Assembly: GCA_001780895.1 (NCBI GenBank)
Contig: MFJJ01000014.1
Location: 1 to 45,297, forward strand
Reading direction: 5' to 3'
Length of the DNA stretch: 45,297 nt
Source: Candidatus Gottesmanbacteria bacterium RIFCSPHIGHO2_01_FULL_46_14
GTDB taxonomy: Bacteria > Patescibacteriota > Microgenomatia > UBA10105 > UBA927
The translations under genes were made by a program, and so were the position numbers. Below the pieces are notes generated by a model. It made no database searches. It was not told where the DNA came from and worked only from the letters and a program-made list of their open reading frames with translations. The first letter of the stretch is position 1. Every line of letters starts with the position of its first letter. This document shows, piece after piece, positions 17,455 to 44,841 of this stretch.

Positions 17455-17457
17455 AAA

Positions 17458-19913: not shown

Positions 19914-19921
19914 ATGAAGAA

Positions 19922-21060: not shown

Positions 21061-21068
21061 ATTTATTG

Positions 21069-22326: not shown

Positions 22327-23952
22327 TTATTTATGTTGTTTAAGGACGGGTTCTGTTTGGAGGGCTGGTAGCCACTCTGGGTGCAACTCATACACATCAG
22401 CGAATGGGTACTCTGCAACGCGTGTATACCGCTCAAGAAACGTAGGGACCACAGAAACTGCTTTCCAGGTAAGATCATTAACGTCATTTGTCCGCATCAC
22501 AATCCACCGAGCCCAACGATCAGGAGAAGTTGTTGCGCTTTCCCAATATGCTCCGGTTCCTTCATGGATAAAGCGCTTCATAGGAAGCCCCGAGGAAAAA
22601 ATAATTGCGTCATGGGACGCTGCAGAAATAAGAATGAATCCTTTCTCGCCTGTTGCATGCTCCTTGAGATACCCGGATACTTCCGATACATTCTTCTGGC
22701 TCGACCCAACTCTTGCATCATCAATCGTCACGGCATCTCCGTTGGCAAAGGCAAAAAAGAGCACGAACGTCAATAGTCCGATGATGACCCACCGCAGAGT
22801 CGCTGCACGATGGACAAGATACCCGATAAATATTGCAATCGACGGCATCATCATCACCCCGTATCGGGCATTAAACCATGTGTCCCCATTGATCCCCTGA
22901 ATAAAGAGAACTGAATGACCCAAATACAAAGCCAAAATATTAAAGAAAAATGGTGCAAAGAGCGCGGTACTCGCAATACGAACACCTGCCGGGATTTTCT
23001 TATCCGACCAGAGAACAACAGCACCAATCGCTCCCATAATAACTTGATACATGTAGGAGTTAAAAATAAGTGCGTACATATAGGTCTGAAATGAGAGCCA
23101 GAAATTTCCCTTTGTAATGAGATTGCCGGCTTGCTCTAGCTGTGCCTGTTGAGCACGGGCTGAAAAGGGGCCCAGAGCAAAGTAGAGAGGATCTTTGAAA
23201 ATCAGAAGGTTCCATAAAAGCCAGAGGGCGATCCCAAACGCAGCAAGCGTTCCAAAAAGAATCACCGTGCCTTCGGCCGTCTTATACCCACGCGTTCGAA
23301 TGGTACGGAAGAGAATCAGCCCTGACGCGACAAAAAGAAGAAACCATCCTTCATAGCGAACGAGGGTTGATAACATAATAAAGAATGCGGCATGGACGAG
23401 AGAAATAATAGAATTATCCCGGTGCCAGGAAACGAGCTTATAAATACCTACAGTCATCGTGGCAAGCAGCAGAAGCTCTGTCATTGCCGTTGACTGGAGA
23501 TACAGGACGTTGATATTTGCCACAAATACGACAACACCAAAAACGCTTCCCAACACACCGACGCCGAGTCGTTTTAAAAACAAATAGATGACGATTCCCG
23601 TTGCAACGAAGGAAACCATCGACAGCAGTGCGCCGGCAAGTCCCGAGTGCCACATAAAGTCATTCCAGATCGTCGGTACCATCAAAAGATGCGGCAGCGG
23701 TAACCACACCGATCCCAACTGTGCCAACCCCGGCTTTAGTCCTTCCACAACGCGTCTTCCGATGTCCAAATGCGACCTGGCATCGTTGTAGGCAAGTCCA
23801 AGTCCGTTGTTCAAATGCTGGACAAAGGTAAGCACGGATATTGCAACAAGCAACCCAAGGAGCAAAGGCAGTGCAAATCTCTCTATATACCCGTGCATTG
23901 ACTGAAGTCTGCGATTATCAATGCTAAATTCCAAGGTAAAAATATTTTTCAT
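22327..23952 (-). CDS. GT-C-fold membrane glycosyltransferase-like protein (GT39-like, 541 aa)
   Basis: About 12 TM segments. The first loop reads LAYNDARSHLDIGRRVVEGLKPGLAQLGSVWLPLPHLL, and there is a C-terminal soluble domain. Confidence 0.55.
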   Translation of the reverse strand: MKNIFTLEFSIDNRRLQSMHGYIERFALPLLLGLLVAISVLTFVQHLNNGLGLAYNDARSHLDIGRRVVEGLKPGLAQLGSVWLPLPHLLMVPTIWNDFMWHSGLAGALLSMVSFVATGIVIYLFLKRLGVGVLGSVFGVVVFVANINVLYLQSTAMTELLLLATMTVGIYKLVSWHRDNSIISLVHAAFFIMLSTLVRYEGWFLLFVASGLILFRTIRTRGYKTAEGTVILFGTLAAFGIALWLLWNLLIFKDPLYFALGPFSARAQQAQLEQAGNLITKGNFWLSFQTYMYALIFNSYMYQVIMGAIGAVVLWSDKKIPAGVRIASTALFAPFFFNILALYLGHSVLFIQGINGDTWFNARYGVMMMPSIAIFIGYLVHRAATLRWVIIGLLTFVLFFAFANGDAVTIDDARVGSSQKNVSEVSGYLKEHATGEKGFILISAASHDAIIFSSGLPMKRFIHEGTGAYWESATTSPDRWARWIVMRTNDVNDLTWKAVSVVPTFLERYTRVAEYPFADVYELHPEWLPALQTEPVLKQHK

Positions 23953-28387: not shown

Positions 28388-28907
28388 AATTTGGAAAATG
28401 AGCGTCTTTCTCTGATATCTTCGTAATTTCAATTGGCCATCGGATTCCAAACGCAGGGTCGTCATATCGAACACCTGCTCGTGATTCCTGTTTGTAAAAA
28501 GCAGTCATCATATACCGAACTTCCACGTCACTTGTTAATGTAATAAAACCATGAGCAAAACCCTCTGGAATATAAAGCCCTTTACAAGAATCGTCACTCA
28601 GTTCTGTACTAAACCATTTTTTGTATGTTGCAGAATTTTTTCGTAAGTCAATGATGACATCGTAGATTCTGCCTTTTGTTATATACATTAATTTACCCTC
28701 ATCATTCGGGGATTTTTGATAATGCATGCCGCGGAGCGTCCCTCGTTGTTTTGTGTATGACATGCTTGACTGTACAAAATCTGTCTTCACGCCGTGTGTT
28801 TTAAACTCACTCCTATCCCATGTTCTGGCAAAAAATCCCCGATCATCTTCTCGTTTTTCGGTTTCGATAATGTATGCGCCGGATAATGGTGTTTTTATAA
28901 ATTTCAT
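28374..28907 (-). CDS. NDP-4-dehydro-6-deoxyhexose 3,5-epimerase (canonical RmlC type, 177 aa)
   Basis: Start trimmed to ATG 28905-28907 (ATGA overlap). Motifs: DDRGFF, LRGMHYQ, GKLMYITKGRIYDVIIDLR, IPEGFAHGF. Confidence 0.8.
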   Translation of the reverse strand: MKFIKTPLSGAYIIETEKREDDRGFFARTWDRSEFKTHGVKTDFVQSSMSYTKQRGTLRGMHYQKSPNDEGKLMYITKGRIYDVIIDLRKNSATYKKWFSTELSDDSCKGLYIPEGFAHGFITLTSDVEVRYMMTAFYKQESRAGVRYDDPAFGIRWPIEITKISEKDAHFPNYDSR

Positions 28908-30127: not shown

Positions 30128-31140
30128 ACCCAAAGTAAATTTTCGTTTAATAGGCCTGTGCTTTTTAGATGGTCAATCATTTTAAGACGTGTATATTGTT
30201 CGGATAAGAATGTTTTCTTACTCATTTCGATCGATTTAAAAACCTCTTTTAACTCTCTTACACCTGTTTCGACATTACGAAGAGCTCTAAAGCCAAGAAC
30301 GCGCGCAATCTTATCAAAATTTACTCGGTAATTTCTCTTGTCAGCCCCTTGTTTATTGAGGGTTATCTTGGACACGTCAAAAACTTTTCCAATAATTTCG
30401 GCAATTTCTTTGATTTGGTAATTAGATCGTGTATCTCCGACGTTCATAATCTGACCGGAGACCTTCTCTTTTGGCGCTGTGAGAGCCAGAAGAAATGCTT
30501 GGCAAACATCCAGAATATGAACAAACGGTCGCCATGGTGTTCCGTCGCTGTCCATTTTCACTTCTTTGGTTGTCCATGCTAATCCCGCCAGATTATTGAC
30601 GGCCAAATCAAAACGAATTCGCGGCGACGGGCCATACACCGTCGCATTCCTGAAAATTATGGGAGTAAATATATCACTTGCTCTCGTTATCAGATATCGT
30701 TCATTAAGAACCTTCGATTTTGCATATGCAGTCAACGGATTGGTTGATGACGTTTCATCACTGACATTGTCCGATGCTCCATATACGCTACAGGAAGATG
30801 AATAAATAAATCTCGGAACTGCCGCCTTTATACATTGGTCGATCAAGTTGACGGTTCCTTTGTGATTAATTTCGTAGGTAAGTTCCGGATTGTTCTGACC
30901 CAGCGGATCGTTGGACAATTCAGCCAGATGAATAACTGCATCAAAGCCCGAAACATCCGAAACCGTAACTTGCCTAATGTCTTTTTTGATAAAAGACTTG
31001 AGTTTAAACGGCTTACCGTATAGCCAACCTTCGTTATAATATTCGGTATCTAGACCCGTGACCTTGTGGCCCGCCGCTATCAGCGCTTGCGCCATCTGAG
31101 TACCAATATATCCTCCTGAACCAGTGAGTAAAATGTTCAT
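30124..31140 (-). CDS. NAD-dependent epimerase/dehydratase family SDR (338 aa)
   Basis: Motifs: ILLTGSGGYIGTQM, SSSCSVYG, YAKSK (YxxxK). It is not the canonical RfbG-type CDP-glucose 4,6-dehydratase sequence as I remember it. Confidence 0.75.
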   Translation of the reverse strand: MNILLTGSGGYIGTQMAQALIAAGHKVTGLDTEYYNEGWLYGKPFKLKSFIKKDIRQVTVSDVSGFDAVIHLAELSNDPLGQNNPELTYEINHKGTVNLIDQCIKAAVPRFIYSSSCSVYGASDNVSDETSSTNPLTAYAKSKVLNERYLITRASDIFTPIIFRNATVYGPSPRIRFDLAVNNLAGLAWTTKEVKMDSDGTPWRPFVHILDVCQAFLLALTAPKEKVSGQIMNVGDTRSNYQIKEIAEIIGKVFDVSKITLNKQGADKRNYRVNFDKIARVLGFRALRNVETGVRELKEVFKSIEMSKKTFLSEQYTRLKMIDHLKSTGLLNENLLWV

Positions 31141-31142
31141 AG

Positions 31143-31712
31143 CTAATGCGTTTTTTCAAGGAAAAAAAGATTGTTATGCATAAACAGATATGAATTACTG
31201 TGTTCGACCTTAACAATTTTTAAACCGAATTTACGAAATAGCTCTACCCATTCCGCTTCGGTCTTATTGCTGTGCGGGTGACCGATAAACTCCTTGTTCA
31301 GTACACTGTCAATCACGTATGTATAAAATCTTTGGAATACGTTCGTAACGATATCTTCATAAATCACGAGACGCTTGGAAACTCTTGCCGCTTCAGCCAG
31401 AACCGCGCGTGGGTCCGGTGTATGATGAAGTACCGCAAACAAAATGCAGGCCGCAAACTGATTTTCTTGATATGGAAGATTCTTACCGTTATAGATATGC
31501 GATGGAGCAGTATAATAATAGCTTCTATTTTTGATATCCACCGGCTCCATGCGGTAGCCCAATCTGAGAAAAGCTTTTGTAAAAAGCCCGGTACCTGCTC
31601 CTAAATCCAGAATTGTTCCTTTTTTTGGTAAAAACGGAACGATCCTGGAAACCTCCCAATTAACGCGAGATCCAAATATCGTTTCTCCAATGATTGCTCT
31701 CAATTTTTTCAT
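31143..31712 (-). CDS. Class I SAM-dependent methyltransferase (189 aa)
   Basis: Motif I ILDLGAGTGLFT, with downstream AVLHHTPDP. Confidence 0.7.
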   Translation of the reverse strand: MKKLRAIIGETIFGSRVNWEVSRIVPFLPKKGTILDLGAGTGLFTKAFLRLGYRMEPVDIKNRSYYYTAPSHIYNGKNLPYQENQFAACILFAVLHHTPDPRAVLAEAARVSKRLVIYEDIVTNVFQRFYTYVIDSVLNKEFIGHPHSNKTEAEWVELFRKFGLKIVKVEHSNSYLFMHNNLFFLEKTH

Positions 31713-31716
31713 ATGA

Positions 31717-32493
31717 TCATTTCCAAACCTTCCACAGGGCTTTTCCTGACACCCATTGTTCTTCTAAAATCATTTTGTCTCTTAGCGTATCCATATTTTG
31801 CCAATAGCCGTCGTATTTAAATACACTAAGCTGACCTTCGTGCGCTAGGGTCTGAAGCGGTTCTTTCTCCCAGATCGTTGCATCCCCTTGGATATAATCA
31901 AATACCGATGGCTCAAGCACAAAATACCCACCATTTATCCATGCCCCATCTCCTTTGGGCTTTTCCTTAAAGGTCACTATTTTGGACTGATCCTCTGAAA
32001 GAGCAAAAGCTCCAAATCTACCCGGAGGCTGGACAGCAGTCATAGTTGCGAGTGTACCCTGCTTTTTATGAAATGCTATAAGCTCTGTTATATTAACGTC
32101 AGTCACACCATCTCCATAGGTAAAACAGAACGTTTCACTCCCTATGTATTCCTTAATTCTCTTAAGTCTTCCACCTGTCATGGTATCCTCCCCGGTCTCT
32201 ACGAGCGTTACGCGCCAAGGTTCTGCGCCATTTCTATGAATTTTTGTGTTGTGACTCGTCAGATCGAACGTCACATCAGAGCGATGAAGGTGATAATTGG
32301 CAAAATACTCTTTAATATAATGACTCTTATACCCACAACAAATGACAAAATCATTTATCCCATAGTGGGAATATATTCTCATGATATGCCAGAGCATGGG
32401 TTTGCCTCCAATTTCCACCATTGGCTTTGGCCGAACGCCTGTTTCCTCAGTAAGTCTTGTACCGAAACCACCTGCTAATATAACTGCTTTCAT
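31717..32493 (-). CDS. rfbF: Glucose-1-phosphate cytidylyltransferase (258 aa)
   Basis: MKAVILAGGFGTRLTEETGVRPKPMVEIGGKPMLWHIMRIYSHYGINDFVICCGYK and INGGYFVLEP are near-canonical for RfbF/DdhA. Confidence 0.85.
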   Translation of the reverse strand: MKAVILAGGFGTRLTEETGVRPKPMVEIGGKPMLWHIMRIYSHYGINDFVICCGYKSHYIKEYFANYHLHRSDVTFDLTSHNTKIHRNGAEPWRVTLVETGEDTMTGGRLKRIKEYIGSETFCFTYGDGVTDVNITELIAFHKKQGTLATMTAVQPPGRFGAFALSEDQSKIVTFKEKPKGDGAWINGGYFVLEPSVFDYIQGDATIWEKEPLQTLAHEGQLSVFKYDGYWQNMDTLRDKMILEEQWVSGKALWKVWK

Positions 32494-32529: not shown

Positions 32530-33413
32530 CTCTTGGTTGAAATATTTACTTTCCATAATGGCGACCGCGCATCACTATCTCTCCTTTGTGTTAGCTTGGC
32601 ATACGCCAATATGCCTACATACAAAAAGACATGGATAGGATGAGTAACGAGTTCCTTGAGGATCGCTTTAAACTGAATAATCGTAGGCACCATATATTCT
32701 CTTGCAATCGACGTGTCAAAATATTGGCTCAGCTCCTCACTGGAATAAAGAAACCGTTGGCTCTGCCGAAGGTGTTCGCTCATGTGTTTAGGATTTTCGA
32801 TAAATACCCTTGCTTCTTTGACCCATACAAATTTGCCTCCCAGGCGTTTATTTTCAAAATATAGATACGCATCAGCGTTGACGATATTGTCCGGAACGGT
32901 CATTTTTTTGAAATGTTGTGTACGGAATGCGAGACAACGACCATTTGCCAGAAGATAGTTGTCGCCGCCTCTCCATGCAGTTCCTATAGTTGTAGTCCCG
33001 CGTAACCCAACATCAATAATCCGCTCAAATTGCGACTGCGCAGTCTCGGCGAGAACATTTGCACCAACCATCGTTACCTTTGGATTATCTTTAAACCGTT
33101 TCACTATCGCCGCAAGAGTTCCCTGGTCAAAACGAACATCATCGTGAGTAATAATGACAATATCTGTACGGATGTGTTCGACCATTTGTTTAACTTTATA
33201 CATCTGACTTCCTGGCTTTTTGTTCTCTACAAGTTTCACTCCTAAAGAGGAAAGATTGCGCTTTATTCCATCTGAAATAGGTTTCGAATCTGCGCGTACT
33301 ACTATCGAAAACGATCCGCACTGGCGACTTCGTCGAATACTTCGAATAGTTGATTGGAGAGATTTGCCTCCATAACAGGTTGGAATGGCTATGGTACAGG
33401 TAAGTTTTTTCAT
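32526..33413 (-). CDS. GT2-like glycosyltransferase (295 aa)
   Basis: Motifs: CTIAIPTCYGG and IITHDDV (acidic motif). It has the same length and C-terminal architecture as the two neighbouring-type GT2 genes but is more divergent. Confidence 0.55.
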   Translation of the reverse strand: MKKLTCTIAIPTCYGGKSLQSTIRSIRRSRQCGSFSIVVRADSKPISDGIKRNLSSLGVKLVENKKPGSQMYKVKQMVEHIRTDIVIITHDDVRFDQGTLAAIVKRFKDNPKVTMVGANVLAETAQSQFERIIDVGLRGTTTIGTAWRGGDNYLLANGRCLAFRTQHFKKMTVPDNIVNADAYLYFENKRLGGKFVWVKEARVFIENPKHMSEHLRQSQRFLYSSEELSQYFDTSIAREYMVPTIIQFKAILKELVTHPIHVFLYVGILAYAKLTQRRDSDARSPLWKVNISTKS

Positions 33414-34312
33414 AGTACGATCGCTTTTCTAGCAGATTGCGCCATCTCCCATTTTTTTGACCGTACCCCATTATCCCGTCGTGGGAATACCCTCACGAGA
33501 ACATTCAATACCACTGCTCCTGATGTATAGAATGGACTACGAATGAACGTTTTCGCCATACCCAACATCTTGTACTTCAAAGGAATTTCGTAAAGACTGT
33601 CGAGATTTTTCCCTAAATATTTGGTCGCCTTATATCGACGGTAAAATATTGCCCTGCTACTGAGAGACCAAAAATCGTGTAGCGTATCCGGAGCTCTATA
33701 CAAAATCTTAGCCTCATGCACGTACCGGAAAGCACCGAGCTGTTTTGCCTTTATATACAAATAGCCCTCATCCGTATTTAAGTCAGCGGGATACCTCACC
33801 GTTTGAGCCACAATTTTTCGCATAGCGGTAGACCCCCCCTGTAAGTTGTGTGGATGATCTCCATCATTAACATGGATTCTCGATTCTATCCAAAACAAGT
33901 CTGCAGCTCGAGAAATATTTCCGATCACCGAATCAGATACAACTGGTTCTATATGAAAAACAGCAATGCCTACGGTTGGATCTTTAAAAACATTGATGAT
34001 TTTTTCAATCGCGTGATTTTCTGCAATAACGTAATCTGCATCAAGAGTAATGAGTATGTCGCTTTTGTTCATTGAATAAATCTGATTGAGAGCAGACATT
34101 TTTCCATCGCGCTTTTTTTGTTCAATAACATGGGCTCCTGCTGACCGAGCTATTTTTGCGGTATCATCGGTACAACCACTACACACCACCACAATTTTTT
34201 CGATCGTAAAATTATTGCCTTTTTGTTTACGAACCGATGAGAGCAAATTCCCAATGTTAACAGCTTCATTATGTGCTGGAATGCCAATGGTGACTGTCAA
34301 TCGCTTTTTCAT
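33410..34312 (-). CDS. Glycosyltransferase family 2 (300 aa)
   Basis: Motifs: VTIGIPAHNEAVNI, VCSGCTDDT, TLDADYV. It has ATGA overlaps on both sides. Confidence 0.75.
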   Translation of the reverse strand: MKKRLTVTIGIPAHNEAVNIGNLLSSVRKQKGNNFTIEKIVVVCSGCTDDTAKIARSAGAHVIEQKKRDGKMSALNQIYSMNKSDILITLDADYVIAENHAIEKIINVFKDPTVGIAVFHIEPVVSDSVIGNISRAADLFWIESRIHVNDGDHPHNLQGGSTAMRKIVAQTVRYPADLNTDEGYLYIKAKQLGAFRYVHEAKILYRAPDTLHDFWSLSSRAIFYRRYKATKYLGKNLDSLYEIPLKYKMLGMAKTFIRSPFYTSGAVVLNVLVRVFPRRDNGVRSKKWEMAQSARKAIVL

Positions 34313-37300
34313 ACAGATGTCCTCCGGGCAATCGTGTACGCAAATACAGATTGTTTAGCGTTTGCAAGCTCGTCCATAACAACGTGATGCAATCGGTCAG
34401 CACTTTTTTCCCAACTAAAATTTTGTGCCCATTCAGTGGCATTTTTCGACCAAGCCCGACGGTCACCGGTACTCGTTATCATCCGCTCCATGGCTCCGAC
34501 AAATGAAAGGACATTTCGGGGCTGAACTAACAGTCCTGTCTTTTCATCGACGACCGAGTCCCGTAGCCCATAGACATTAGATGCGATGACGGGCGTACCG
34601 CAGGCATTCGCCTCAATAACCGTCAGTCCCCAGCCTTCAAATGAAGACGGCTGGATTGCCGCCCAATGCCGACTATAAAGCCGTACTTTTTCTTCCTCAT
34701 CTACTTTGCCCATAAATGAAACCGATGTTGTCAAATCAAACTCTTTTATTAATGCACGAAGTGCATCTATACTTTCTCCTTCTCCTGCAATGGTCATTCG
34801 TGCGGTCTGGTGAAACTTTCGTACTGTCGCAAAGGCACGTATCGCCACGTCGATATTTTTATATTGTTTGAGCCTTCCTAAATATAAAAATGAGGGAAAT
34901 GTGGTTTTTTTCGACTTGGTATTATAAAGAGACAAGTCAACTCCAGGGCTTACAATATCTATTCGTGCATCTTTCCCATACTGTAGATGAGCAAGTATTT
35001 CAGCCTTTGACGATTCGGAAACAGTAACGATTCTGGATCCTCTATAAACCAGAGGTGCAATTCTGGATTCTATAAACGCTGCGATAGAAGAGAATGGAAA
35101 TTTAAGATGCTCCCGAAATACCTGCTGGTGCACGTGATAAATAACCGTGATCGTGGGAATCCGGGCATAGAGCGGAGCAAAAAACGGAATTCCGTTTTGG
35201 CTATCGATAATAACGTCAAACTTACCCCTGAATCTAAAAACATAGTAAAGCATTGCCCACAGATAGACCGTATAAAATCCACCGCGACGCACAACCCGAA
35301 CTCCATCGATAACCTGGTTTCTGCTGTGTTTGCCATCATTGCCACAAAAGATGGTCACCTGGTTACCTGAAGCAACCCATCGCTTGGCAAGCTCGTGAAC
35401 GTAGACTTCCGCTCCTCCTGCCCATGTATGCCTCGTATCGCGCCAATTGAGAACCAAAATCCGAAGCGCAGCTCCTGCGGTGCGTTGTTTGGGAAATTCG
35501 GAGAACAACCCTAAAAAGTCACCGATGTTTCGAATAAAAACTCGTATCGGCTCGAGGAATACATGAGTAAAAGCTACCGCGTTTACAAATGCGAGAGAGG
35601 AAACAAGAAGAACATGCACAATTGCATCAAGTGATCCGTGACTCAACGTAATTCCCACTATTGCACCCGCACTTGCCACAAAACTCATCGCAGAAAATAC
35701 ATAGTTATGCCGAATCTGATGATACGTCACGATTGTTGATGCAACAGTAAAGAACGCATAAGCTATCGCGTACTCAGGGAGAAGATGGACAATGGAATTT
35801 GCACGCTCACCAAACAGCAGTGGCGCGGTAATATACCCATATACCCCAAAGGCTAAAACACCAATTCCTGAAGCGATCATAGTTAGTCCTAAAAGAATCC
35901 GGAACTGTCGCTTCCCTTTTCCTCCTTCTCCAACCCTTCTGCTCACCAAGGGAACGATAAACTGCGAAAATAGCGAACCAAAAAAGAAAATCATTTTCCC
36001 CGATAGGGACAACAGTGCATATTGTCCCGCCTCTATCGGCGTTACGAAGAGTCGGACCATGAGAAAATCAAGCCCCAAAAACGCAGCAGATGAAGAACGG
36101 ATCAGTATCGTCGAGGCAAAAAACCGCCTCGGAAATCCACCATCTTTCGGATCCACAACCCGCTTTTGATCTTGGCTGGAAAATCTTACCGATAACCATC
36201 GCACCACGGCAAAAGAACAAACAATTGATAAGGGAATAGCAGCATACACAAGAAGCGATATCCCAGTCTCGACACCCAAAATAGCAAACACGAGCTTTGA
36301 AATTGCTTCGGTAATAAGCACAACAGACACTAACGTAAACTGCTGGGAACCGCTCAAATATCCTCCGTCGACGGAAGCAAGCAAACCAACCATAACAACA
36401 GGCGTAAAAAGCACGATTGGTGCAAGCGAATTGAGATGAAGCACTGTTGAGATTACCGGAATCCCGCCAATCCAAATTCCTGTAGCAAACAGCGAAACAA
36501 CGAGAGCTTTATGGCGTACGGTTTTCCAAAATTCAGTAGCCGGACCATCATATCTGCCCATCAGATATGCACTTTTGTGAGTAACCGTCATTGAAACTGC
36601 ACTAAATGCTATCTGGGCGGCATAGAGAAGACTTCCGATAAGACCGATAACACCAAAATCCTCGAGGCTCAATTTTCTTCCCAGGTAGGCATTATAGACA
36701 AAATTAAGCAGATTTCCCAATACTGAAGCCGCGATCAAAAGGACCGCTGGTGACAAAACGGGAGCAAAATTCCAACGCCTGGCTGCTTTTGCAGATTTAG
36801 GAGCAACGGCAAAAATTTTCTTCTTTGCTTTGTCCAAGTGGAATCCGTGGTTTGTCTTTTCCCAGTAATGGGGCTTAACGATAAGCTGTACCATGGCAAT
36901 CGTTGCAGCGACAGATACCATCAACCAGTAAAACGGCACGAGAAAAACATACTTAATGACGCTCCAGTGTCCTGCCCGGGCAGCACCAATCATGTAGTAA
37001 TAGATAAACAGGAAGTTTCCGAACACCAGAGACGTGACGGCCATATAGAAAATGACCGTCGGATAGAGCGATTCGATCGTCGGACCGACAAACGCGTAGA
37101 GAGTAAAATACGAAATTGTGGCAAGCCACAAAAAAGGATTGATGAACATAAACGCGATCTTGCCCCCAATGGTCAATTGAAAATACAAAGCATGAATGCC
37201 GTGACGCGAAACAAAACGGAGAGGATAGCGCATATGGACTAGATACGTCTGGAGATACCCTTTGATCCATCGGGATCGTTGCCTCATCCAATTTCCGAAT

Positions 37301-38979
37301 TTGCTGGTTGCTTCCTCGAGGGTAATTGAGTCCATGACGGCAGTTTTGTATCCCGCGCTAAAGAGCCGTGAGCCCAAATCACAATCCTCCGTCACGTTAA
37401 ATGCATCCCATCCATGGAGATGACGGAGAATTTCGGTTCGGAAATGGTTGCTCGTCCCGCCAAGCGGGATACTGGTTTGGATAGACTGAAGTCCGGTAAG
37501 GACGACGTCAAACCAGAGTGAATATTCTGCAGTAAATAGCCTCGTGAGCAAGTTGTTGTGTGGATTGTAAAAATTGAGCTTTGCCTGAAGACAGACCGTC
37601 TTGGCAGGCACTCTACCGAATGCCAGAATTGCTTTTTTGAGTTGTTTGGGATCAGGTATATCTTCTGCATCGTAGACAACAACATAATCCCCTTTTGCAT
37701 ATGCCAACCCGTAATTACAAGCCTTTGGCTTGGTTTTGGGCGCTCCCTCAGGGACCACCAGAATCCGTACATAGTCAGGCAATGTCAGGTTAGAAACTTC
37801 ATCGATGGTCTCCTTGTCATCCTCCTCTAAAAGTAACATCACGTCGAGACGATTTTTAGGATAGTCAAGACTTTCGATCGCTTTTAAAAATTGAGGAACA
37901 ACATGGGCTTCGCGGTACAACGGACACAATATCGAGTACAATGGAAGAGACCTCTCATCGATATGTGATAATTCTGCCTCCGTTATACTGATATCCGGTG
38001 ACCGGTGGAGACTTCTGAGAACCAAAAAGAGAGTAAATAGCACGTCAACAAAATAGATTGTTGAAAGTATGCCAACGATGCCAATAGCTGTTGGTAGCGG
38101 GTGCAAAATAAGCCCTGCAACAACGAGAGTAATGGTCATCGCTATTGCGACTTGCTGCCAAAACAGAAATGTCTTGATTGCAGAAATTTGGTGCGGGAGT
38201 GTGGAATGGGTGATAAAGCGAGTGCGTTTGTGCGCAATGCCTGCGCCAATCATCGACCCCTCACTCTTGGGCGGAAGCGTGTAGATAGGTTTGACATTGA
38301 GCCAGGTGATGAGTGCACCACTTGCTATTTCCCAGGCAGTTTTGGTGAGATTGATCTTGGAAGCACCTTCTTGCCGCAACTCAAAGCTGATGTCAACTGA
38401 TCCGATACTATACCCTACCTCTCGGGCAGTGGACAGAAGCGGCAAATCAAACGCCCAGGGTCTAATAGAGTTCTCGTCAATGTGACCCAAGATGTCTTTG
38501 CGGAAGAGCTTTAATCCTGACTGGATATCTGTTGAAATACCAAACAATAGTTTTCCAAAAACAAACGCATTCGTGCGCGAAAGCACCCGCCTTAGACAGG
38601 ATCCCTTGTATTGTCTCCGGTTGGCAACGACTATGCCATGCTTTTGGGCTTTCTCGACCATAGCTGGAATTGCTTCCGGGGGATATTGCAAGTCTGCATC
38701 GATCATGACGATCCATTCACTTTTGGCTAATTTGGCCCCTTCGATAATGCTGTATGCTTTTCCTGCTTTACCACGCTTCGTATGAATCAGGATCGGGTAG
38801 TCCTTCGACAATCTCTCCATAACGGCGACTGACCCGTCGGTCGAATGATCATCAACAAAAATAATTTCATAGGAAATTTTTGCAGAAGCAAGGGATGCAT
38901 TGATCCGCTCGACCAGAGGAGTTAGTGTCAACTCTTCATTTCTGCCAGGAATGACGATCGATAAATTTTCTGGTTTCAT
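34309..38979 (-). CDS. 1556-aa four-module fusion: Dpm1-like GT2 / processive cellulose-chitin-synthase-like GT2 with TM bundle / 12-TM MOP(Wzx)-like module / GT4
   Basis: A single uninterrupted frame. Module 1: aa 5-230 (nt ~38290-38967), with IVIPGRNEE, FVDDHSTDGS, IDADLQ. Module 2: aa ~268-715 (nt ~36835-38178), with 2 TM, then YDAED, TEDCDLG, QRSRW, then ~4 TM. Module 3: aa ~738-1150 (nt ~35530-36768), with ~12 hydrophobic segments and LGRKLSLEDFGVIG, typical of Polysacc_synt flippases. Module 4: aa ~1172-1540 (nt ~34360-35466), with ILVLNWRD...GGAEVYVHELA and SFEGWGLTVIEANACGTPVIAS (GT4 EX7E region). Confidence 0.85.
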   Translation of the reverse strand: MKPENLSIVIPGRNEELTLTPLVERINASLASAKISYEIIFVDDHSTDGSVAVMERLSKDYPILIHTKRGKAGKAYSIIEGAKLAKSEWIVMIDADLQYPPEAIPAMVEKAQKHGIVVANRRQYKGSCLRRVLSRTNAFVFGKLLFGISTDIQSGLKLFRKDILGHIDENSIRPWAFDLPLLSTAREVGYSIGSVDISFELRQEGASKINLTKTAWEIASGALITWLNVKPIYTLPPKSEGSMIGAGIAHKRTRFITHSTLPHQISAIKTFLFWQQVAIAMTITLVVAGLILHPLPTAIGIVGILSTIYFVDVLFTLFLVLRSLHRSPDISITEAELSHIDERSLPLYSILCPLYREAHVVPQFLKAIESLDYPKNRLDVMLLLEEDDKETIDEVSNLTLPDYVRILVVPEGAPKTKPKACNYGLAYAKGDYVVVYDAEDIPDPKQLKKAILAFGRVPAKTVCLQAKLNFYNPHNNLLTRLFTAEYSLWFDVVLTGLQSIQTSIPLGGTSNHFRTEILRHLHGWDAFNVTEDCDLGSRLFSAGYKTAVMDSITLEEATSKFGNWMRQRSRWIKGYLQTYLVHMRYPLRFVSRHGIHALYFQLTIGGKIAFMFINPFLWLATISYFTLYAFVGPTIESLYPTVIFYMAVTSLVFGNFLFIYYYMIGAARAGHWSVIKYVFLVPFYWLMVSVAATIAMVQLIVKPHYWEKTNHGFHLDKAKKKIFAVAPKSAKAARRWNFAPVLSPAVLLIAASVLGNLLNFVYNAYLGRKLSLEDFGVIGLIGSLLYAAQIAFSAVSMTVTHKSAYLMGRYDGPATEFWKTVRHKALVVSLFATGIWIGGIPVISTVLHLNSLAPIVLFTPVVMVGLLASVDGGYLSGSQQFTLVSVVLITEAISKLVFAILGVETGISLLVYAAIPLSIVCSFAVVRWLSVRFSSQDQKRVVDPKDGGFPRRFFASTILIRSSSAAFLGLDFLMVRLFVTPIEAGQYALLSLSGKMIFFFGSLFSQFIVPLVSRRVGEGGKGKRQFRILLGLTMIASGIGVLAFGVYGYITAPLLFGERANSIVHLLPEYAIAYAFFTVASTIVTYHQIRHNYVFSAMSFVASAGAIVGITLSHGSLDAIVHVLLVSSLAFVNAVAFTHVFLEPIRVFIRNIGDFLGLFSEFPKQRTAGAALRILVLNWRDTRHTWAGGAEVYVHELAKRWVASGNQVTIFCGNDGKHSRNQVIDGVRVVRRGGFYTVYLWAMLYYVFRFRGKFDVIIDSQNGIPFFAPLYARIPTITVIYHVHQQVFREHLKFPFSSIAAFIESRIAPLVYRGSRIVTVSESSKAEILAHLQYGKDARIDIVSPGVDLSLYNTKSKKTTFPSFLYLGRLKQYKNIDVAIRAFATVRKFHQTARMTIAGEGESIDALRALIKEFDLTTSVSFMGKVDEEEKVRLYSRHWAAIQPSSFEGWGLTVIEANACGTPVIASNVYGLRDSVVDEKTGLLVQPRNVLSFVGAMERMITSTGDRRAWSKNATEWAQNFSWEKSADRLHHVVMDELANAKQSVFAYTIARRTSV

Positions 38980-39155
38980 GGCTTGAACTTCTGATTTTTC
39001 AAAAACGAATAGAAATCATTTTTTGCTATCCGATAGTATCTCCCAAAACGCACCGCAGAGAGTCTCCCGGAACGGATATATTCGTAGATCGTTAATGTGT
39101 TTAGCCTGAGTATCTTGGCTATTTCACTAACAGTGAGAAAAGGTGCGTCAAACAT
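38976..39155 (-). CDS. Small excisionase/MerR-type HTH DNA-binding protein (59 aa), absent from the supplied ORF track
   Basis: Hand translation from ATG 39153-39155 gives MFDAPFLTVSEIAKILRLNTLTIYEYIRSGRLSAVRFGRYYRIAKNDFYSFLKNQKFKP. The pattern LT..E.A..L.....T+Y.....G.L....+G+.+RI...D...+L is the HTH_17/excisionase signature. The TGA stop (38976-38978) overlaps the ATG (38977-38979) of the 1556-aa gene. Confidence 0.65.
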   Translation of the reverse strand: MFDAPFLTVSEIAKILRLNTLTIYEYIRSGRLSAVRFGRYYRIAKNDFYSFLKNQKFKP

Positions 39156-39258: not shown

Positions 39259-39588
39259 CTATTGAACAGGATAGTGGTGTTGGGTGACGTACGTTCCAAT
39301 CGGCTCGTCGTTAACCGGGACTTTGAGAAGCCATGAGAATGTATTTGCAATAGAGGCCCCTACCCGAAGTCCAGTATAGGATCCGGGTCCGGTAGCGACC
39401 CGAATGTCGGTAATATCGCCCATTTTGAGGCTATTTTTGGCTAAAAGTGATTCAATACCGGATAGTACCGCCGTCCCACTCCTTAACGGCGTCTCAACCG
39501 TAAGCTTCTCAATCCTACCCTCGACATCAAGGGTGATAACCGACTTCATCCGATCCGAGGTATCAATGGAGAGAATTACTGATTTCAT
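39259..39588 (-). CDS. tsaB: Truncated (N-terminal-domain-only) TsaB-like t6A protein (109 aa)
   Basis: Start trimmed to ATG 39586-39588 (ATGA overlap). Motifs: ILSIDTS and ATGPGSYTGLRVGASIAN (the TsaB GPGSFTGLRIG motif). The protein ends about 100 aa earlier than typical TsaB. Confidence 0.65.
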   Translation of the reverse strand: MKSVILSIDTSDRMKSVITLDVEGRIEKLTVETPLRSGTAVLSGIESLLAKNSLKMGDITDIRVATGPGSYTGLRVGASIANTFSWLLKVPVNDEPIGTYVTQHHYPVQ

Positions 39589-40166
39589 AGGTCTACCGCG
39601 CCCTGACGGATGATGCGATAGGGGTGGACGGAACAATCAACGACAGTTGAGGGTTGTTTTAGCGTACAGTCCCCTGGTACAACAAAATCAACCAGTTGCA
39701 GCAACTCCGGATCGAGATCGCTAAAACGATATGGCGTTTTTCCCCCATGAAAATTTGCTGATGGCCCGAGGATCGGCACCCCGACCCCTTCTATTACATA
39801 GAGAGCGTCTGGATGGTTAGGCATGCGAAGGCCGATCGTGTCGCCGTTACCCCGGATAGGGGAGTAGACGAGTTCTTTATTACATGGCACCACAATCGTC
39901 AACGCGCCAGGCCAATATGTATCCATTAAACGTCGCACAATTTTAGACGGGGAAAGAAAGTGGGCGAGTGCCATTTCTTTGGAAGACACCAATACCGGCG
40001 TTGCTTGTGTACGAGGACGCCTGCGAATTTCAAATAATCGATCTACTGCTTGGCAGTCATCGATCCGGCACCCTATACCGAAGGCAGTATCGGTTGGGTA
40101 AATAACAATCCCACCATTACTGAGGACTTCAATTGCCTTTTTGATATCTGATTTCATGATTTCCAT
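39585..40166 (-). CDS. tsaC: L-threonylcarbamoyladenylate synthase, YrdC/TsaC type (193 aa)
   Basis: Motifs: GGIVIYPTDTAFGIGC, YWPGALTIV, SANFHGG. The start is ATG 40164-40166 or 40155-40157; both overlap the tsaE 3' end. Confidence 0.8.
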   Translation of the reverse strand: MEIMKSDIKKAIEVLSNGGIVIYPTDTAFGIGCRIDDCQAVDRLFEIRRRPRTQATPVLVSSKEMALAHFLSPSKIVRRLMDTYWPGALTIVVPCNKELVYSPIRGNGDTIGLRMPNHPDALYVIEGVGVPILGPSANFHGGKTPYRFSDLDPELLQLVDFVVPGDCTLKQPSTVVDCSVHPYRIIRQGAVDL

Positions 40167-40566
40167 TTGGTAAAACCGAAAATGTGATATCAACTCTATC
40201 CTTGGGAAGCCAATTTCCCAGTTTTTCCGCCCACTCAATAACGACGATAGAATCCGGATCCGACAACATATCCGAGACACCTAACTCCGCGAGATCTTTC
40301 TCTTCTACCCGATAGAGATCCAGATGATAGAGAAATCCGGCAGAATCAGGAATATTGTAACGTCGCACAATGATAAATGTGGGAGAGAGCAGGCGAGAGG
40401 TAATTCCCAGACCTTTGGCAAATCCCTGCACAAACGTCGTTTTACCAGTGCCTAACTCACCATAAAAACAAAGAACGCGAGGGGATTTTAAATTATTTCC
40501 AATCTCCTCCCCCACTCCCGCAGTTTCTTGGGCGCTTTTGGTAATAATTTTATGAGAAAAATCCAT
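40129..40566 (-). CDS. tsaE: t6A ATPase TsaE (145 aa)
   Basis: Motifs: SAQETAGVGEEIG...VLCFYGELGTGKTTFVQGFAKGLGI, SPTFIIV, YHLDLYR. Confidence 0.85.
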   Translation of the reverse strand: MDFSHKIITKSAQETAGVGEEIGNNLKSPRVLCFYGELGTGKTTFVQGFAKGLGITSRLLSPTFIIVRRYNIPDSAGFLYHLDLYRVEEKDLAELGVSDMLSDPDSIVVIEWAEKLGNWLPKDRVDITFSVLPNGNHEIRYQKGN

Positions 40567-40871
40567 GAAAGGGTGGCTCCAATGCCATCAATTATAACAT
40601 CGCGCACTCTTCCTTCCCTTGTAGATACAAATGTCTGGTGAAATTCGTCGGTCGATGCGTAGGCGATGGTCAAAAAAAATGCAATCCATTTGTTCTTTAT
40701 TGCCCGGCAATAGAGGATAAAAAGAACGCCATATTCTATAACATGAAGCGTTTTGAAGAATAGAAAATTTATAATAAATCGCTCATCCACGCTAACCGAC
40801 TCGCGGCTGGAAAAAGCGAAGATAATCGCCATCCATATGATTGCAGGGAACCACAAACGAATGTATTTCAT
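40488..40871 (-). CDS. VanZ-like family membrane protein (127 aa)
   Basis: Start trimmed to ATG 40869-40871 (ATGA overlap). It has 4 TM segments, with the FKTLHVIEYGVL and STDEFHQTFVSTREGRVRDVIID motifs. Confidence 0.75.
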   Translation of the reverse strand: MKYIRLWFPAIIWMAIIFAFSSRESVSVDERFIINFLFFKTLHVIEYGVLFILYCRAIKNKWIAFFLTIAYASTDEFHQTFVSTREGRVRDVIIDGIGATLSWIFLIKLLPKAPKKLREWGRRLEII

Positions 40872-41650
40872 TGAAGCTTTCTTTTTTTCCAAACAAGCAC
40901 AATTGCTATGATAGCAAGCCCGATTGCTACAAGTAAGAGGGCAATGATAAGAGGCAGCACCGGTTTAATTCCCCCTGATGGTGTTGCTGCCGTCTCGGTA
41001 CCCAGTACGATTCCGGAAGGGCTTACCTCAATGGTTGGTGTTAATGAAATCTTCGGTGTTGGTGTTTTAGTAGGTGTTGATTTTTTTGTAGGTGAATGAA
41101 TGATAGTCGGGGTAAGAGTATTGGTTGCTTGTGGTGCCGGGGTCGGAGTTTTTGTAGGGGCCTGCGTAGCAGTTGGGCCGGAAATTGCCAGAGACACTTC
41201 GTTGGACCACGTTGCACTACCGCCGCCGGTATACCTGCCGACCTTAAATACATAATTGCCTGGACCAGAATATGCAGAGTCTGCCGGGTCCGGTTTCACT
41301 TTTAGTTTTCCGCTCCAACTACCCTCAAATAAATCATTCTCCCCTACTTTGAAATACTGCGTCTTATCATTTGACGTTCCGATCCACTGGCCTTGGTTGT
41401 TTTGCGTGAAACCAAAATAGTTTGTTCCGCTCGGATAAAATACTCCTCGCAAATATGAATCGCTACAACCGTCACACGAAAGAAATACATCCGCGTCTAC
41501 TTCCTGAGACTGATCGAGCGAGGATGGGACATTGCTCACAGAAATAGTGACGGCGTGGACGGGGCGTACGAACGCTACGAGCGAAATCAAGGCTAAGCCT
41601 TGAAATATTCTACTGAACGTGGAGGTAGAATGAGAGCGTACTATCGCCAT
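40868..41650 (-). CDS. Secreted surface protein: signal peptide, beta-rich domain, Pro/Thr-rich linker, C-terminal TM anchor (260 aa)
   Basis: ATG at 41648-41650. Signal peptide FSRIFQGLALISLVAFVRPVHA. Linker TATQAPTKTPTPAPQATNTLTPT...TPTKTPTPKISLTPT. C-terminus VLPLIIALLLVAIGLAIIAIVLVWKKRKLQ. Confidence 0.55.
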   Translation of the reverse strand: MAIVRSHSTSTFSRIFQGLALISLVAFVRPVHAVTISVSNVPSSLDQSQEVDADVFLSCDGCSDSYLRGVFYPSGTNYFGFTQNNQGQWIGTSNDKTQYFKVGENDLFEGSWSGKLKVKPDPADSAYSGPGNYVFKVGRYTGGGSATWSNEVSLAISGPTATQAPTKTPTPAPQATNTLTPTIIHSPTKKSTPTKTPTPKISLTPTIEVSPSGIVLGTETAATPSGGIKPVLPLIIALLLVAIGLAIIAIVLVWKKRKLQ

Positions 41651-42740
41651 GATCAATATACTTAATTTTGATAATACTACTTCCGCCGCAAGGTTGACTC
41701 GATGAGTACAGTGTACCGTCGGCGGGCGCCCTGATGACACTACTGGTATTTGACGTCATGTCAAAACCGGTATGGATGCCCCCCGAGTACGCATAGAGCC
41801 AGGGGTAGAGAGTTTTGCCGAATCGCTGCGTTATCCGGATTGGGCCCTCTAGCGGCCAATCCCAGGAACCACTGCCGAATGTTGCGTCAGAATTGGTCTG
41901 TTCGTCGTAGACGGATTTTGATGAAAGGTAACTGCCTGGATCTACCCATGAATTATTTTTACGCACTTCAAAGTGAAGATGGGCGCCCGTGGAACAGCCG
42001 GGATAGCCCGTATTGCCAACCAACGCAATCGGATCGCCTTTCTTAACCGGACCGACTCGCACTGCATCAACAAGCGCCCGTTCAATAGCCTGCTTTTCAG
42101 CCAGAGCTCCCGCAAGCAGTCGCTGATAGACCGACTCATCGTTTCTTGTTTGCTCAAGTAACGTTTGCTTTTCCCGTTTCTGGCGTTCCAGTTCACGGCT
42201 CTGGATCTCCAGTTCTTTTTGGAGCGATTCCTGTTCCAGTCTCTTGTCCTCGCGGAGATTTTTACGCTCACTAAAGTTATTTTGCGTGGCTTTTAACTGA
42301 AACAGAAGTTGCGCATCCTGTTTTTGGACGACCTCGACGTATTTTATGCGAGAGAGAAAATCGGAAAAATTCTGGCTTAAAAATACCGCACCAAACTGTG
42401 AAATTACTTTCCGCTTATAGGATTCCGGAATGCGGTGGAGGACGAGTTCGGATCTGCGATTTAACAGATCTTCCAACCGTTCTATTTCGTCAGCAAGCTG
42501 AACGATTTCAGTAGAAAGTTTGGCAATTGCAGATTGGATACTGGTGATCCGGAGGGTTGTTAATTGGATCTGAGAATTAATGAGCGAAATCTGCTTGGCA
42601 AGGCTGTTCTCTGTATTTTGAAGCTCACTAATCTTATTTTTAAGGTCTTCAATCGTTCTGTTGATGTCACTATCGGCGGCATAAACCCGGGACACAAATA
42701 ATGTGAAAAGGACTATTCCGATAACAAGTAATCGCTTCAT
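41610..42740 (-). CDS. Coiled-coil + M23 (LytM) metallopeptidase, EnvC/PcsB-like FtsEX partner candidate (376 aa)
   Basis: Signal peptide/TM, then ~190 aa of heptad-like Q/E/L/K-rich sequence. M23 motifs follow in non-canonical order: GDPIALVGNTGYPGCSTGAHLHFEV (aa ~235-259) comes before GIHTGFDM (aa 321-328) and LSFYLHVQ (C-terminus). Confidence 0.8.
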   Translation of the reverse strand: MKRLLVIGIVLFTLFVSRVYAADSDINRTIEDLKNKISELQNTENSLAKQISLINSQIQLTTLRITSIQSAIAKLSTEIVQLADEIERLEDLLNRRSELVLHRIPESYKRKVISQFGAVFLSQNFSDFLSRIKYVEVVQKQDAQLLFQLKATQNNFSERKNLREDKRLEQESLQKELEIQSRELERQKREKQTLLEQTRNDESVYQRLLAGALAEKQAIERALVDAVRVGPVKKGDPIALVGNTGYPGCSTGAHLHFEVRKNNSWVDPGSYLSSKSVYDEQTNSDATFGSGSWDWPLEGPIRITQRFGKTLYPWLYAYSGGIHTGFDMTSNTSSVIRAPADGTLYSSSQPCGGSSIIKIKYIDHGDSTLSFYLHVQ

Positions 42741-42747
42741 GCATGGG

Positions 42748-44348: not shown

Positions 44349-44360
44349 TGCGGGTACTGT

Positions 44361-44804: not shown

Positions 44805-44812
44805 ATATACGC

Positions 44813-44841
44813 ATTATGGATACTTATGATATTTTTTTCAA
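44813..44841 (-). promoter_or_regulatory. Sigma70-like promoter candidate TTGAAA-17-CATAAT, ending 8 nt before ATG 44804
   Basis: Minus strand reads TTGAAA (44836-44841), a 17-nt spacer, CATAAT (44813-44818), GCGTATAT, then ATG. The -35 lies inside the prfB 3' end. Confidence 0.35.

Follow-up and report, generated by a model that had tools for sequence, protein, structure and literature searches.

Introduction

Several three-part glycan decoration systems are established or have been proposed, among them GtrB/GtrA/GtrC, CsbB/GtcA/YfhO and GacI/GacK/GacL, and two Wzx-type proteins, GacK and the archaeal AglR, have been proposed to flip monophosphate-linked sugars. As far as is known, glycosyltransferases of the PMT_2/ArnT type, which belong to the GT-C class, work on the outer membrane face and take single sugars from polyprenyl-monophosphate donors. 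Here we describe a protein encoded in a 45,297-nucleotide stretch of DNA from Candidatus Gottesmanbacteria bacterium RIFCSPHIGHO2_01_FULL_46_14 (contig MFJJ01000014.1, positions 1 to 45,297, the whole of which we call the window). The product of its open reading frame (ORF) at 34309..38979 joins two family 2 glycosyltransferases (GT2), a 12-helix flippase-type transporter and a family 4 glycosyltransferase (GT4) in one polypeptide. Like the systems named above, and like AglD/AglR/AglS, it combines a GT2 of the dolichyl-phosphate mannose synthase (DPMS)/GtrB type with a flippase-type module, which, like GacK and AglR, is predicted to be of the Wzx type; PMT_2-type GT-C genes likewise lie in the surrounding gene array and may work jointly with it. 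In the known three-component systems, by contrast, each part is a protein of its own, flipping usually falls to a small protein of the GtrA type, and no part is known to be joined to a processive synthase or a GT4. MprF, a lysyl-phosphatidylglycerol synthase and flippase, offers a precedent for one polypeptide that both makes and flips a lipid-linked product, but its folds and chemistry are unrelated and the likeness is one of analogy only.

The host of this protein belongs to the Candidate Phyla Radiation (CPR), or Patescibacteria, whose members are uncultured, have tiny genomes, and have cell envelopes that are almost unknown.

One reading frame joins four modules and is conserved across Microgenomates

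An original prediction, made from the sequence alone, had claimed that a single uninterrupted frame joins four modules that are normally separate proteins. The frame indeed starts with ATG, runs for 1556 codons without an internal stop and ends at a stop codon at 34309-34311; every motif that had been quoted from it (FVDDHSTDGS, IDADLQ, YDAED, TEDCDLG, QRSRW and EX7E) is found in the product, and the junction peptides said to contain no ATG are present and have no methionine. Pfam recognizes PF00535, PF13641 with PF13632, PF13439 and PF00534 in the product, which correspond to two GT2 domains and one GT4. We refer to the modules as M1 to M4, and they are laid out as follows.

34309..38979 (-): whole ORF, M1-M2-M3-M4, 1556 aa
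38275..38979 (-): M1, aa 1-235, predicted GT-A domain of the DPMS/GtrB/ArnC type (Pfam PF00535, PDB sequence matches, Foldseek)
36820..38274 (-): M2, aa 236-720, predicted membrane-embedded processive-type GT2 (Pfam PF13641 and PF13632, Foldseek)
36751..36843 (-): M2/M3 linker, aa 713-743, variable and Lys/Arg-rich (low conservation, gaps, predicted local distance difference test score, pLDDT, below 50)
35509..36750 (-): M3, aa 744-1157, predicted 12-transmembrane (TM) module of the MOP superfamily, divergent PST/Wzx type (AlphaFold, Foldseek, Pfam matches of orthologues)
35464..35508 (-): M3/M4 linker, aa 1158-1172
34312..35463 (-): M4, aa 1173-1556, predicted GT4 with a GT-B fold (Pfam PF13439 and PF00534, PDB matches)

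The four-module fusion is conserved across Microgenomates. A database search returned at least 120 orthologous protein clusters of 1514-1607 aa, with a query cover of 98-100% and identities of 48-73%, drawn from NCBI, JGI, ENA and Logan assemblies and labelled as Gottesman-, Woese-, Ames- and Levybacteria or as Microgenomates; the window protein's own cluster is 'hypothetical protein A2971_04390' of Candidatus Gottesmanbacteria, listed at 100% identity across the full query. The junctions are gap-poor in an alignment of 120 of these orthologues, and D44, D48, D94, D96, D437, E439, D440, E531, D532, Q567-W571, E1448 and E1456 are invariant in all 120. D43 of M1 is an aspartate in 117 of them, and the G1368-R pair and K1374 of M4 are likewise among the catalytic residues that are invariant or nearly so. 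With the catalytic residues of M1, M2 and M4 so strongly retained, selection for activity acts on all three transferase domains.

One might still suspect an artefact, with the long frame created by a mis-assembly or by a sequencing error that removed a stop, or kept only as a decaying pseudogene, and the original prediction had itself raised the possibility of a mis-assembly or frameshift at a junction. A few relatives (L010, L012 and L017 among the related loci described below) do show overlapping split ORFs, which could be frameshifts. However, since at least 120 full-length orthologues come from independent Microgenomates assemblies, mis-assembly can be ruled out; the catalytic motifs are all invariant or nearly so, the AlphaFold models are confident, and the identical single-ORF architecture recurs on long contigs, the longest of them a 983-kb chromosome (L003). 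We consider the chance of an artefact negligible.

No characterized protein with this order of modules had been known to the original prediction. A search of the literature on Microgenomates and Gottesmanbacteria glycosyltransferases found no paper describing the four-module protein, although this search was partial and its negative outcome is weak. The protein is not unique, however: hundreds of orthologues are present in public databases, where they are named only 'glycosyltransferase' or 'hypothetical protein'.

Two side observations concern the ORF and its relatives. The AT skew rises to between +0.19 and +0.23 at window positions 35001-37000, in the membrane-rich part of the ORF, compared with about -0.1 in the 10 kb downstream; the hydrophobic segments probably account for this through their codon composition, and a foreign origin is the less likely cause. 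Separately, many records encoding this CPR-type protein carry titles such as 'uncultured Gammaproteobacteria', 'Bdellovibrionales', 'Pseudomonadales' and 'Bacteroides sp.' (L005-L007, L016, L019, L020, L022, L029-L033, L035 and others, as well as P0087); these titles are probably wrong taxonomic labels on metagenome bins.

M1 resembles polyprenyl-phosphate glycosyltransferases and M2 resembles processive synthases

M1 had been described as a Dpm1/GtrB-like GT2, and we agree with this assignment. Glycos_transf_2 (PF00535) matches aa 7-164 (E 4e-40), and the nearest relatives of known structure by phmmer are the Pyrococcus dolichyl-phosphate mannose synthase (5mlz, E 4e-18) and ArnC and GtrB (E 1e-12 to 1e-13). 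Foldseek superposes the M1 model on polyprenyl-phosphate transferases with a root-mean-square deviation (rmsd) of 2.3-2.5 Å over about 230 residues (5mlz: 234 columns, rmsd 2.5). Besides FVDDHSTDGS, the module carries IDADLQYPPE at aa 93-102; within DADLQYPP, which we take to be the hallmark DxD context of the polyprenyl-phosphate GT2 family, D94, D96 and Y99 never vary, nor does P101 in alignments of 30 and of 54 sequences. M1 is thus a DPMS/GtrB/ArnC-type GT2 and a predicted polyprenyl-phosphate glycosyltransferase. In the AlphaFold model it has no TM helices of its own, and its GT-A domain is followed by a helix at aa 211-227. The only nearby TM hairpin, at aa 273-325, is an M2-family element: alignments to stand-alone M2 homologues begin at about aa 262-275, and since these proteins include the hairpin, we rejected the possibility that it is part of M1, as in GtrB. 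M1 and M2 are modelled together as one confident body (predicted TM-score, pTM, 0.86; pLDDT 88).

In M2 this hairpin is followed by a GT-A domain, an interface helix with QRSRW in it, a set of three C-terminal helices and, at the C-terminal end, the motif YWEKTxHG. Its landmarks are the following.

38005..38163 (-): TM hairpin of the M2 family, aa 273-325 (AlphaFold helices 273-292 and 294-325)
37267..37281 (-): QRSRW, aa 567-571, matching the Q(R/Q)xRW signature of processive GT2 synthases (120/120 orthologues; AlphaFold helix 561-582)
36844..36876 (-): KPHYWEKTNHG, aa 702-712, terminal motif of stand-alone M2 proteins

Pfam places Glyco_tranf_2_3 and Glyco_trans_2_3 on aa 348-630. The motifs YDAED (D437-A-E-D440), TEDCDLG (T530-E-D532) and QRSRW, which had led the original prediction to propose a processive GT2 with the full D,D,D,Q(R)xRW set, are invariant or nearly so in the 120 orthologues, and the fold points the same way. 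The best Foldseek matches of the M2 model are the E. coli and Rhodobacter cellulose synthases BcsA (E 2e-16; 451 columns, 4.5 Å), together with the Chlorella-virus (Cv-HAS) and Xenopus hyaluronan synthases (HAS) and the minimal cellulose-synthase-like PcManGT; Cv-HAS reaches a TM-score of 0.57 per target, and the alignments of about 450 columns to BcsA and Cv-HAS take in the membrane part. NCBIfam gives partial, sub-threshold similarity to PgaC/IcaA and CelA, far under every equivalog cut-off. We therefore describe M2 as a minimal processive GT2 of the BcsA/hyaluronan-synthase type, with predicted activity.

Compared with described synthases, M2 shares the D, DxD, TED and QxxRW motifs of BcsA, class I HAS, PgaC/IcaA, NodC and PcManGT, and over the roughly 450 residues of the fold match to BcsA and HAS it shares the N-terminal TM hairpin and the interface helix with QRSRW. 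It differs from BcsA and HAS in being much shorter past the QxxRW helix, where three helices lead into YWEKTxHG and the last TM pair, judging from the model, is missing. It also differs from BcsA in having no PilZ domain, and from the known processive GT2 synthases in being fused to three further modules. Within KPHYWEKTNHG, positions P703, W706, E707, K708, T709, H711 and G712 are invariant, and a Paraconexibacter protein 51% identical to M2, a GT2 carrying the MshEN domain discussed below, ends immediately past YWEKTxHG. By its position and sequence, this motif may be the equivalent of the BcsA/HAS gating loop.

M3 is a divergent flippase-type domain and M4 a generic GT4

The original prediction that module 3 is a MOP/Wzx flippase is borne out by its modelled fold and by profile matches of its orthologues, but searches with the window sequence itself (aa ~740-1165) matched nothing in Pfam, the PST-family profiles PF01943, PF13440 and PF14667 included, and nothing in NCBIfam or among PDB sequences, even at E<=10. 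When six orthologues were rescanned, M3 matched Polysacc_synt (PF01943) or Polysacc_synt_3 (PF13440) across nearly the entire profile. The PF13440 matches have E values of 7e-7 and 4e-12, above the cut-off (the best, P0079, with E 4e-12, scores 46 bits against a cut-off of 23), and the PF01943 matches, with E 1.6e-5 to 2.3e-7, lie at or near it; a precomputed match to one of the two families is on record for 16 of the 120 listed orthologues. The AlphaFold model of M3, built on an alignment of 53 orthologues, is confident (pLDDT 92.3, pTM 0.90), and Foldseek finds 51 PDB matches to it at E<=1e-3, with about 430 columns and TM-scores of 0.6-0.73; among the 50 matches listed, all are MATE, MurJ, WzxE or related MOP proteins except 5c6n ('protein A'). 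The Pfam matches of the orthologues, together with this resemblance to MATE, MurJ and WzxE, lead us to place M3 in the PST/Wzx family as a very divergent MOP domain and a putative flippase. It shares a modelled 12-TM MOP fold with both termini inside with WzxE and MurJ, and an N-terminal LGRxLxxExFG motif (YLGRKLSLEDFG in the window protein) and the PF01943 and PF13440 matches of its orthologues with Wzx/PST flippases, from which it differs in its strong divergence and in its place between two glycosyltransferase domains.

A canonical stand-alone Wzx (Polysacc_synt_3, E 7e-51) is encoded in the same array at window positions 1958-3409 (-). We considered M3 as a recent duplicate of this protein and rejected the idea, as BLASTP, hhalign and a hidden Markov model (HMM) built from M3 detected no relation between the two.

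M4 is, as had been predicted, a GT4 with an EX7E region. Glyco_transf_4 (PF13439) covers aa 1188-1350 (E 7e-20) and Glycos_transf_1 (PF00534) aa 1357-1517 (E 1e-39), and the EX7E pair, E1448...E1456, is invariant in the 120 orthologues. Its PDB matches are sucrose-phosphate synthase, MshA, GlgA and WbaZ, and NCBIfam gives partial, sub-threshold similarity to MshA-like GT4 enzymes; these matches mark M4 as a generic GT4.

The predicted topology keeps the catalytic domains in the cytoplasm

Because the M2/M3 linker is rich in lysine and arginine, with a mean of 8.6 such residues over aa 701-744, the span that holds it, in the 120 orthologues, we predict it to be cytoplasmic. A Gottesmanbacteria relative with the order M1-M2-M4 (L034) points to the same side: there an 84-aa linker without a hydrophobic segment (maximum 19-residue hydropathy 0.45) joins M2 directly to the nucleotide-sugar-using GT4, so that the C-terminus of M2 should be cytoplasmic. 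MOP proteins have both termini inside, and the alternating charge of the M3 loops argues for this arrangement in M3 also, since the even loops carry on average 3.0, 1.0, 5.3, 3.0 and 1.8 lysines plus arginines in the 120 orthologues and the odd loops at most 1.2. Twelve TM crossings in two 6-TM lobes, with both termini inside, are thus supported for the M3 model. The membrane part of M2 is harder to read. Past the QRSRW helix AlphaFold places helices at 595-638, 641-668 and 672-701, with a basic turn at 664-677, which fits two crossings and one non-crossing helix followed by YWEKTxHG; hydropathy, AlphaFold secondary structure and loop charges together leave the number of M2 crossings ambiguous, at 2 or 4; their even parity follows from the natural fusion of M2 to a GT4 in L034.

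The original prediction had counted TM helices by eye and found even numbers at each step (2, 4 and 12). Even parity and the twelve helices of M3 stand, whereas its count of '2 + ~4' for M2 was not confirmed. A cytoplasmic location for all three catalytic domains, as it had concluded, agrees with the L034 linker and the M3 loop charges. What does not fit the topology is its suggestion of a product flipped by module 3 and then decorated by module 4: because M4 is predicted to be a nucleotide-sugar-dependent GT-B enzyme on the cytoplasmic side, and the C-terminus of M3 lies inside, an order in which flipping precedes the GT4 is unlikely.

Related genomes carry the modules in fused, neighbouring or rearranged form

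Scanning the GTDB species-representative genomes for M2 relatives returned at least 598 stretches, and in 80 loci (numbered from L001) we mapped the modules and checked the reading frames. The following architectures were found.

L001-L007, L013, L021: M1-M2-M3-M4, single ORF
L009, L011, L016, L020: M2-M3-M4
L023, L024, L034: M1-M2-M4 without M3; L022 the same, with a degenerate M3 remnant
L026: M1-M2-half M3-M4, then a separate complete M3
L029, L035: M1-M2 and M3-M4 as neighbouring genes
L045: M1-M2 and M3-M4, about 3 kb apart
L039, L041: M2 and M3 as neighbouring genes
L025, L027, L028, L046: M1-M2 alone

M3 may thus be absent, split off or located after M4. Since the modules are seen fused, side by side or reordered from one related genome to the next, Rosetta-stone reasoning suggests that M1 to M4 act together. 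We read the four modules as functionally linked, with a fusion that is not obligatory and an M3 that appears dispensable or separable. The original prediction had proposed a survey of CPR genomes for the same domain order against split orthologues, and both turn out to exist: the fusion recurs, but so do split and M3-less forms.

The arrangement in L026 is unusual in its own right. Within 5923-11579, one ORF holds M1-M2, only the C-terminal lobe of M3, and M4, and is followed by a separate gene for a whole M3; the opposite strand encodes two more M1-M2 paralogues at 1-5434.

Relatives of M2 outside the CPR pair with MshEN domains and GT-C enzymes

Relatives of M2 with 45-51% identity occur outside the CPR in Chloroflexota, Actinomycetota, Bacillota, Aquificota and other phyla. 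Six of the eight that we scanned (L052, L063, L065, L066, L076 and L080) have N-terminal MshEN domains, which are receptors for cyclic di-GMP (c-di-GMP), in one to six copies, with six in tandem in two of these six proteins. M1 stands at the N-terminal position that MshEN takes in these relatives, and Pfam gives no MshEN match in the window protein. Fusions of MshEN with glycosyltransferases have been noted before (PMC5013675), and E. coli NfrB has been shown experimentally to be an MshEN-controlled GT2 exopolysaccharide synthase with DxD, TED and QxxRW motifs (PMC8669469). The non-CPR members of the M2 family likewise couple such a GT2 with MshEN, but MshEN is C-terminal in NfrB and N-terminal in the M2 relatives, and the window protein has none; we rejected M2 as an NfrB orthologue given an identity of 22%. 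We found no characterization of the MshEN-GT2 family that is 45-51% identical to M2, a widespread group with members in Actinomycetota, Bacillota and Chloroflexota.

The second recurrent partner is a PMT_2-type GT-C. Across several phyla, at least 12 loci have a homologous GT-C gene directly behind M2, and a GT-C lies in the flanks of 23 of the 36 non-CPR loci. In Ktedonobacteraceae and Chloroflexia the two are fused in single ORFs (L049, L050 5722-8634; L056 5809-8817; L061 4238-7243), and the Ktedonobacteraceae M2 proteins have a C-terminal PMT_2 GT-C domain instead of MshEN. A polyprenyl-phosphate-type GT2 joins M2 and GT-C in L048, L063, L065, L071 and L076; in the Sporolactobacillus operon (L065) the order is MshEN-M2, then a GT2 with a GtrA_DPMS_TM domain, then a PMT_2 GT-C, with overlapping ORFs. 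This distribution suggests that M2 is an old and widespread core, and that the ancestral unit was M2 with a PMT_2-type GT-C.

The gene heads a long glycan array

The genes of the window that bear on these comparisons are the following.

22327..23952 (-): GT-C homologue, 541-aa polytopic membrane protein (BLASTP to M2-linked GT-Cs)
7318-9006 and 10682-12301 (-): PMT_2 GT-Cs
12184-13299 (-): second DPMS-type GT2, fused to a GtrA/DPMS TM domain
33410..34312 (-): GT2 gene that follows the large ORF, its ATG overlapping that ORF's stop (ATGA), and opens a long glycan array on this strand
38976..39155 (-): 59-aa HTH_17 ORF, an excisionase-type helix-turn-helix (PF12728, E 4e-12), whose stop overlaps the ATG of the large ORF (ATGA)

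The protein encoded at 22327-23952 has no Pfam match of its own; by BLASTP it is 27% identical over 310 aa (E 2e-21) to the fused GT-C of L049, and it also matches the GT-C of L065 (E 1e-11). With M1 and the product of 12184-13299, the island encodes two candidate polyprenyl-phosphate-sugar synthases. The HTH_17 ORF could encode a translationally coupled regulator. A Woesebacteria orthologue of the large ORF has a response-regulator gene where the window has this ORF, and it also heads a glycan operon, of different content.

The same-strand array further includes five more GT2 genes, rmlABCD, sugar-modifying enzymes and the canonical Wzx. Three polytopic proteins of about 520-560 aa without a Pfam family (4117-5787, 5784-7436 and 23949-25514, all (-)), two of which are paralogues (25% identity, E 2e-46), may be further GT-C-like enzymes. 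The regions 15574-18665 and 26442-32493 (-) hold a complete rmlABCD-type dTDP-rhamnose set along with a second nucleotide-sugar branch (a sugar C-methyltransferase, a DRL-type oxidoreductase and two methyltransferases), which points to an unusual methylated deoxysugar. Mid-island, at 18914-21126 (-), lie genes for a CAP/SCP-domain protein and a sortase. Upstream of the large ORF, 39259-45270 (-) is a housekeeping region with an RF-1-domain protein, FtsE, FtsX, a PcsB-like M23 peptidase, TsaE, Sua5 and TsaB. The TsaB-like ORF is only 125 aa long and several ORFs overlap within 39259-40892, which may reflect start-codon ambiguity or a truncated gene.

Discussion

What might a processive synthase, a flippase-type domain and two further glycosyltransferases do in one polypeptide? 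Our preferred reading, to which we would give a probability of roughly 45%, is a modular envelope-glycan machine in which M2 is a backbone synthase and M1, M3 and a GT-C form a branch that supplies lipid-linked sugars for decoration. The domain identities, their conservation and modularity, the parity of the topology and the gene linkage of M2 with a GT-C and a polyprenyl-phosphate GT2 are established above; the substrates, the flipping by M3, the role of M4 and the acceptor are inferences. M2 would polymerize a beta-linked backbone from a nucleotide sugar and thread the polymer through its own TM channel. M1, anchored by way of the TM hairpin of M2, would charge polyprenyl phosphate with a sugar, which M4 would perhaps extend on the cytoplasmic face before flipping, unless M4 acts in priming. 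M3 would flip the lipid-linked sugar, and the GT-Cs of the island, notably that at 22327-23952, would transfer the sugar outside the cell onto the extruded polymer or another surface acceptor. Synthase and flippase would then be two converging branches and not competing export routes. The original prediction had found it unexpected that synthase-dependent and Wzx-dependent export should meet in one protein; because M2 relatives in other phyla come with a polyprenyl-phosphate GT2 and a PMT_2-type GT-C, M3 is better read as a side-branch flippase than as a second exporter of the M2 polymer, and the clash probably dissolves.

Several points weigh against this reading. PST/Wzx proteins classically flip diphosphate-linked oligosaccharides and not monophosphate sugars, and M3 of the window matches no PST profile, just as the HMM built from M3 misses the canonical Wzx of the island, so that its substrate could be something else. 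Flipping could already be covered by that Wzx (1958-3409) together with the GT2 gene that carries a GtrA domain. Fusions of M1-M2-M4 without M3 tie M4 to M2 or M1 independently of flipping. Many loci with M2 and a GT-C have no polyprenyl-phosphate GT2 in their flanks, which means that the donor branch is not always co-encoded, and the gene content downstream of the orthologues varies.

It is also conceivable that the sugar made by M1 is a primer. Synthase-dependent O-antigen assembly on a lipid primer is established, and in a mechanism of the WbbF type M2 would elongate and export a polymer linked to the polyprenyl phosphate of M1, a GT-C or ligase would move the chain to its acceptor, and M3 and M4 would handle or extend the lipid-linked end. 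M1 is fused straight before M2 and modelled with it as one rigid unit, Bacillota operons encode M2 alongside a polyprenyl-phosphate GT2 and a GT-C, and M2-GT-C fusions exist, all of which one might expect if M2 worked on a lipid-linked chain. We nonetheless think this rather unlikely: the associated GT-Cs are of the PMT_2/ArnT type, which as far as is known transfers single sugars and not polymers, the stand-alone MshEN-M2 proteins often have no adjoining polyprenyl-phosphate GT2, and M3 would be left without a necessary role. A related but distinct idea is a hybrid of synthase and Wzx export, in which M3 acts in series with M2 on a chain begun on the polyprenyl-phosphate sugar of M1; quite unlikely as we judge this to be, it would amount to a so far undescribed way of exporting polysaccharide, within one polypeptide, and perhaps to the principal envelope-polymer pathway of Microgenomates. 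The route that it implies, with the glycan passing through the synthase channel and the MOP domain, in the place that the last TM pair takes in BcsA and HAS, handling the lipid-linked end, seems to us just as improbable.

Fusion need not imply that a product is handed over at all. Independent enzymes of one pathway might be joined merely for stoichiometry or co-localization in a small genome, M3 then being an ordinary Wzx for a separate repeat-unit glycan made by M4 and the neighbouring GT2s. The highly variable module content and the split versions would suit such a scaffold, as would the varying gene content downstream and the occurrence of M3-M4 as a unit of its own, including one 3 kb from M1-M2 in L045. 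Yet the same four modules are found together, fused or adjacent, again and again across many Microgenomates lineages, the linkers are short, and the window genes scanned yielded no initiating phosphoglycosyl transferase, an enzyme required by the classical Wzx pathway; we regard a mere scaffold as unlikely. Finally, M1 and M2 could alternate sugars on one chain, as in K4CP or PmHAS-like copolymer synthases, with M4 adding a third sugar and M3 exporting or flipping the product. M1 has no TM helices of its own, and Foldseek aligns both GT-A domains of M1-M2 to the chondroitin polymerase K4CP (2z86, ~640 columns), but that superposition is poor (rmsd ~18 Å, TM-score 0.24), the nearest relatives of M1 in both sequence and structure are all polyprenyl-phosphate transferases with which it shares DADLQxPP, and M2 works without M1 in other phyla. 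A dual-transferase copolymer synthase is therefore very unlikely.

Each module belongs to a family that was already known, and the protein sequence itself has been in public databases under uninformative names. New here are the conserved joining of a processive synthase and a MOP flippase domain in a four-module protein, the modular variants of this combination, and its link to a cross-phylum unit of synthase and GT-C, with MshEN on the synthase, which appears to be uncharacterized. As a Rosetta-stone fusion, the protein ties four enzyme families to one another and points to this unstudied unit, in which a minimal processive GT2 is paired with a PMT_2-type GT-C and often with a polyprenyl-phosphate GT2; cultured relatives that carry the MshEN synthase (Paenibacillus, Sporolactobacillus and Clostridium drakei) make the unit testable. 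If the decoration model proves correct, a polymer extruded by a synthase would receive its decoration in situ from a branch dedicated to lipid-linked sugars. For the Microgenomates themselves, a four-enzyme polypeptide present in many of the sampled lineages is a strong candidate for the machinery behind a major surface glycan, and hence for a part in attachment to the host.

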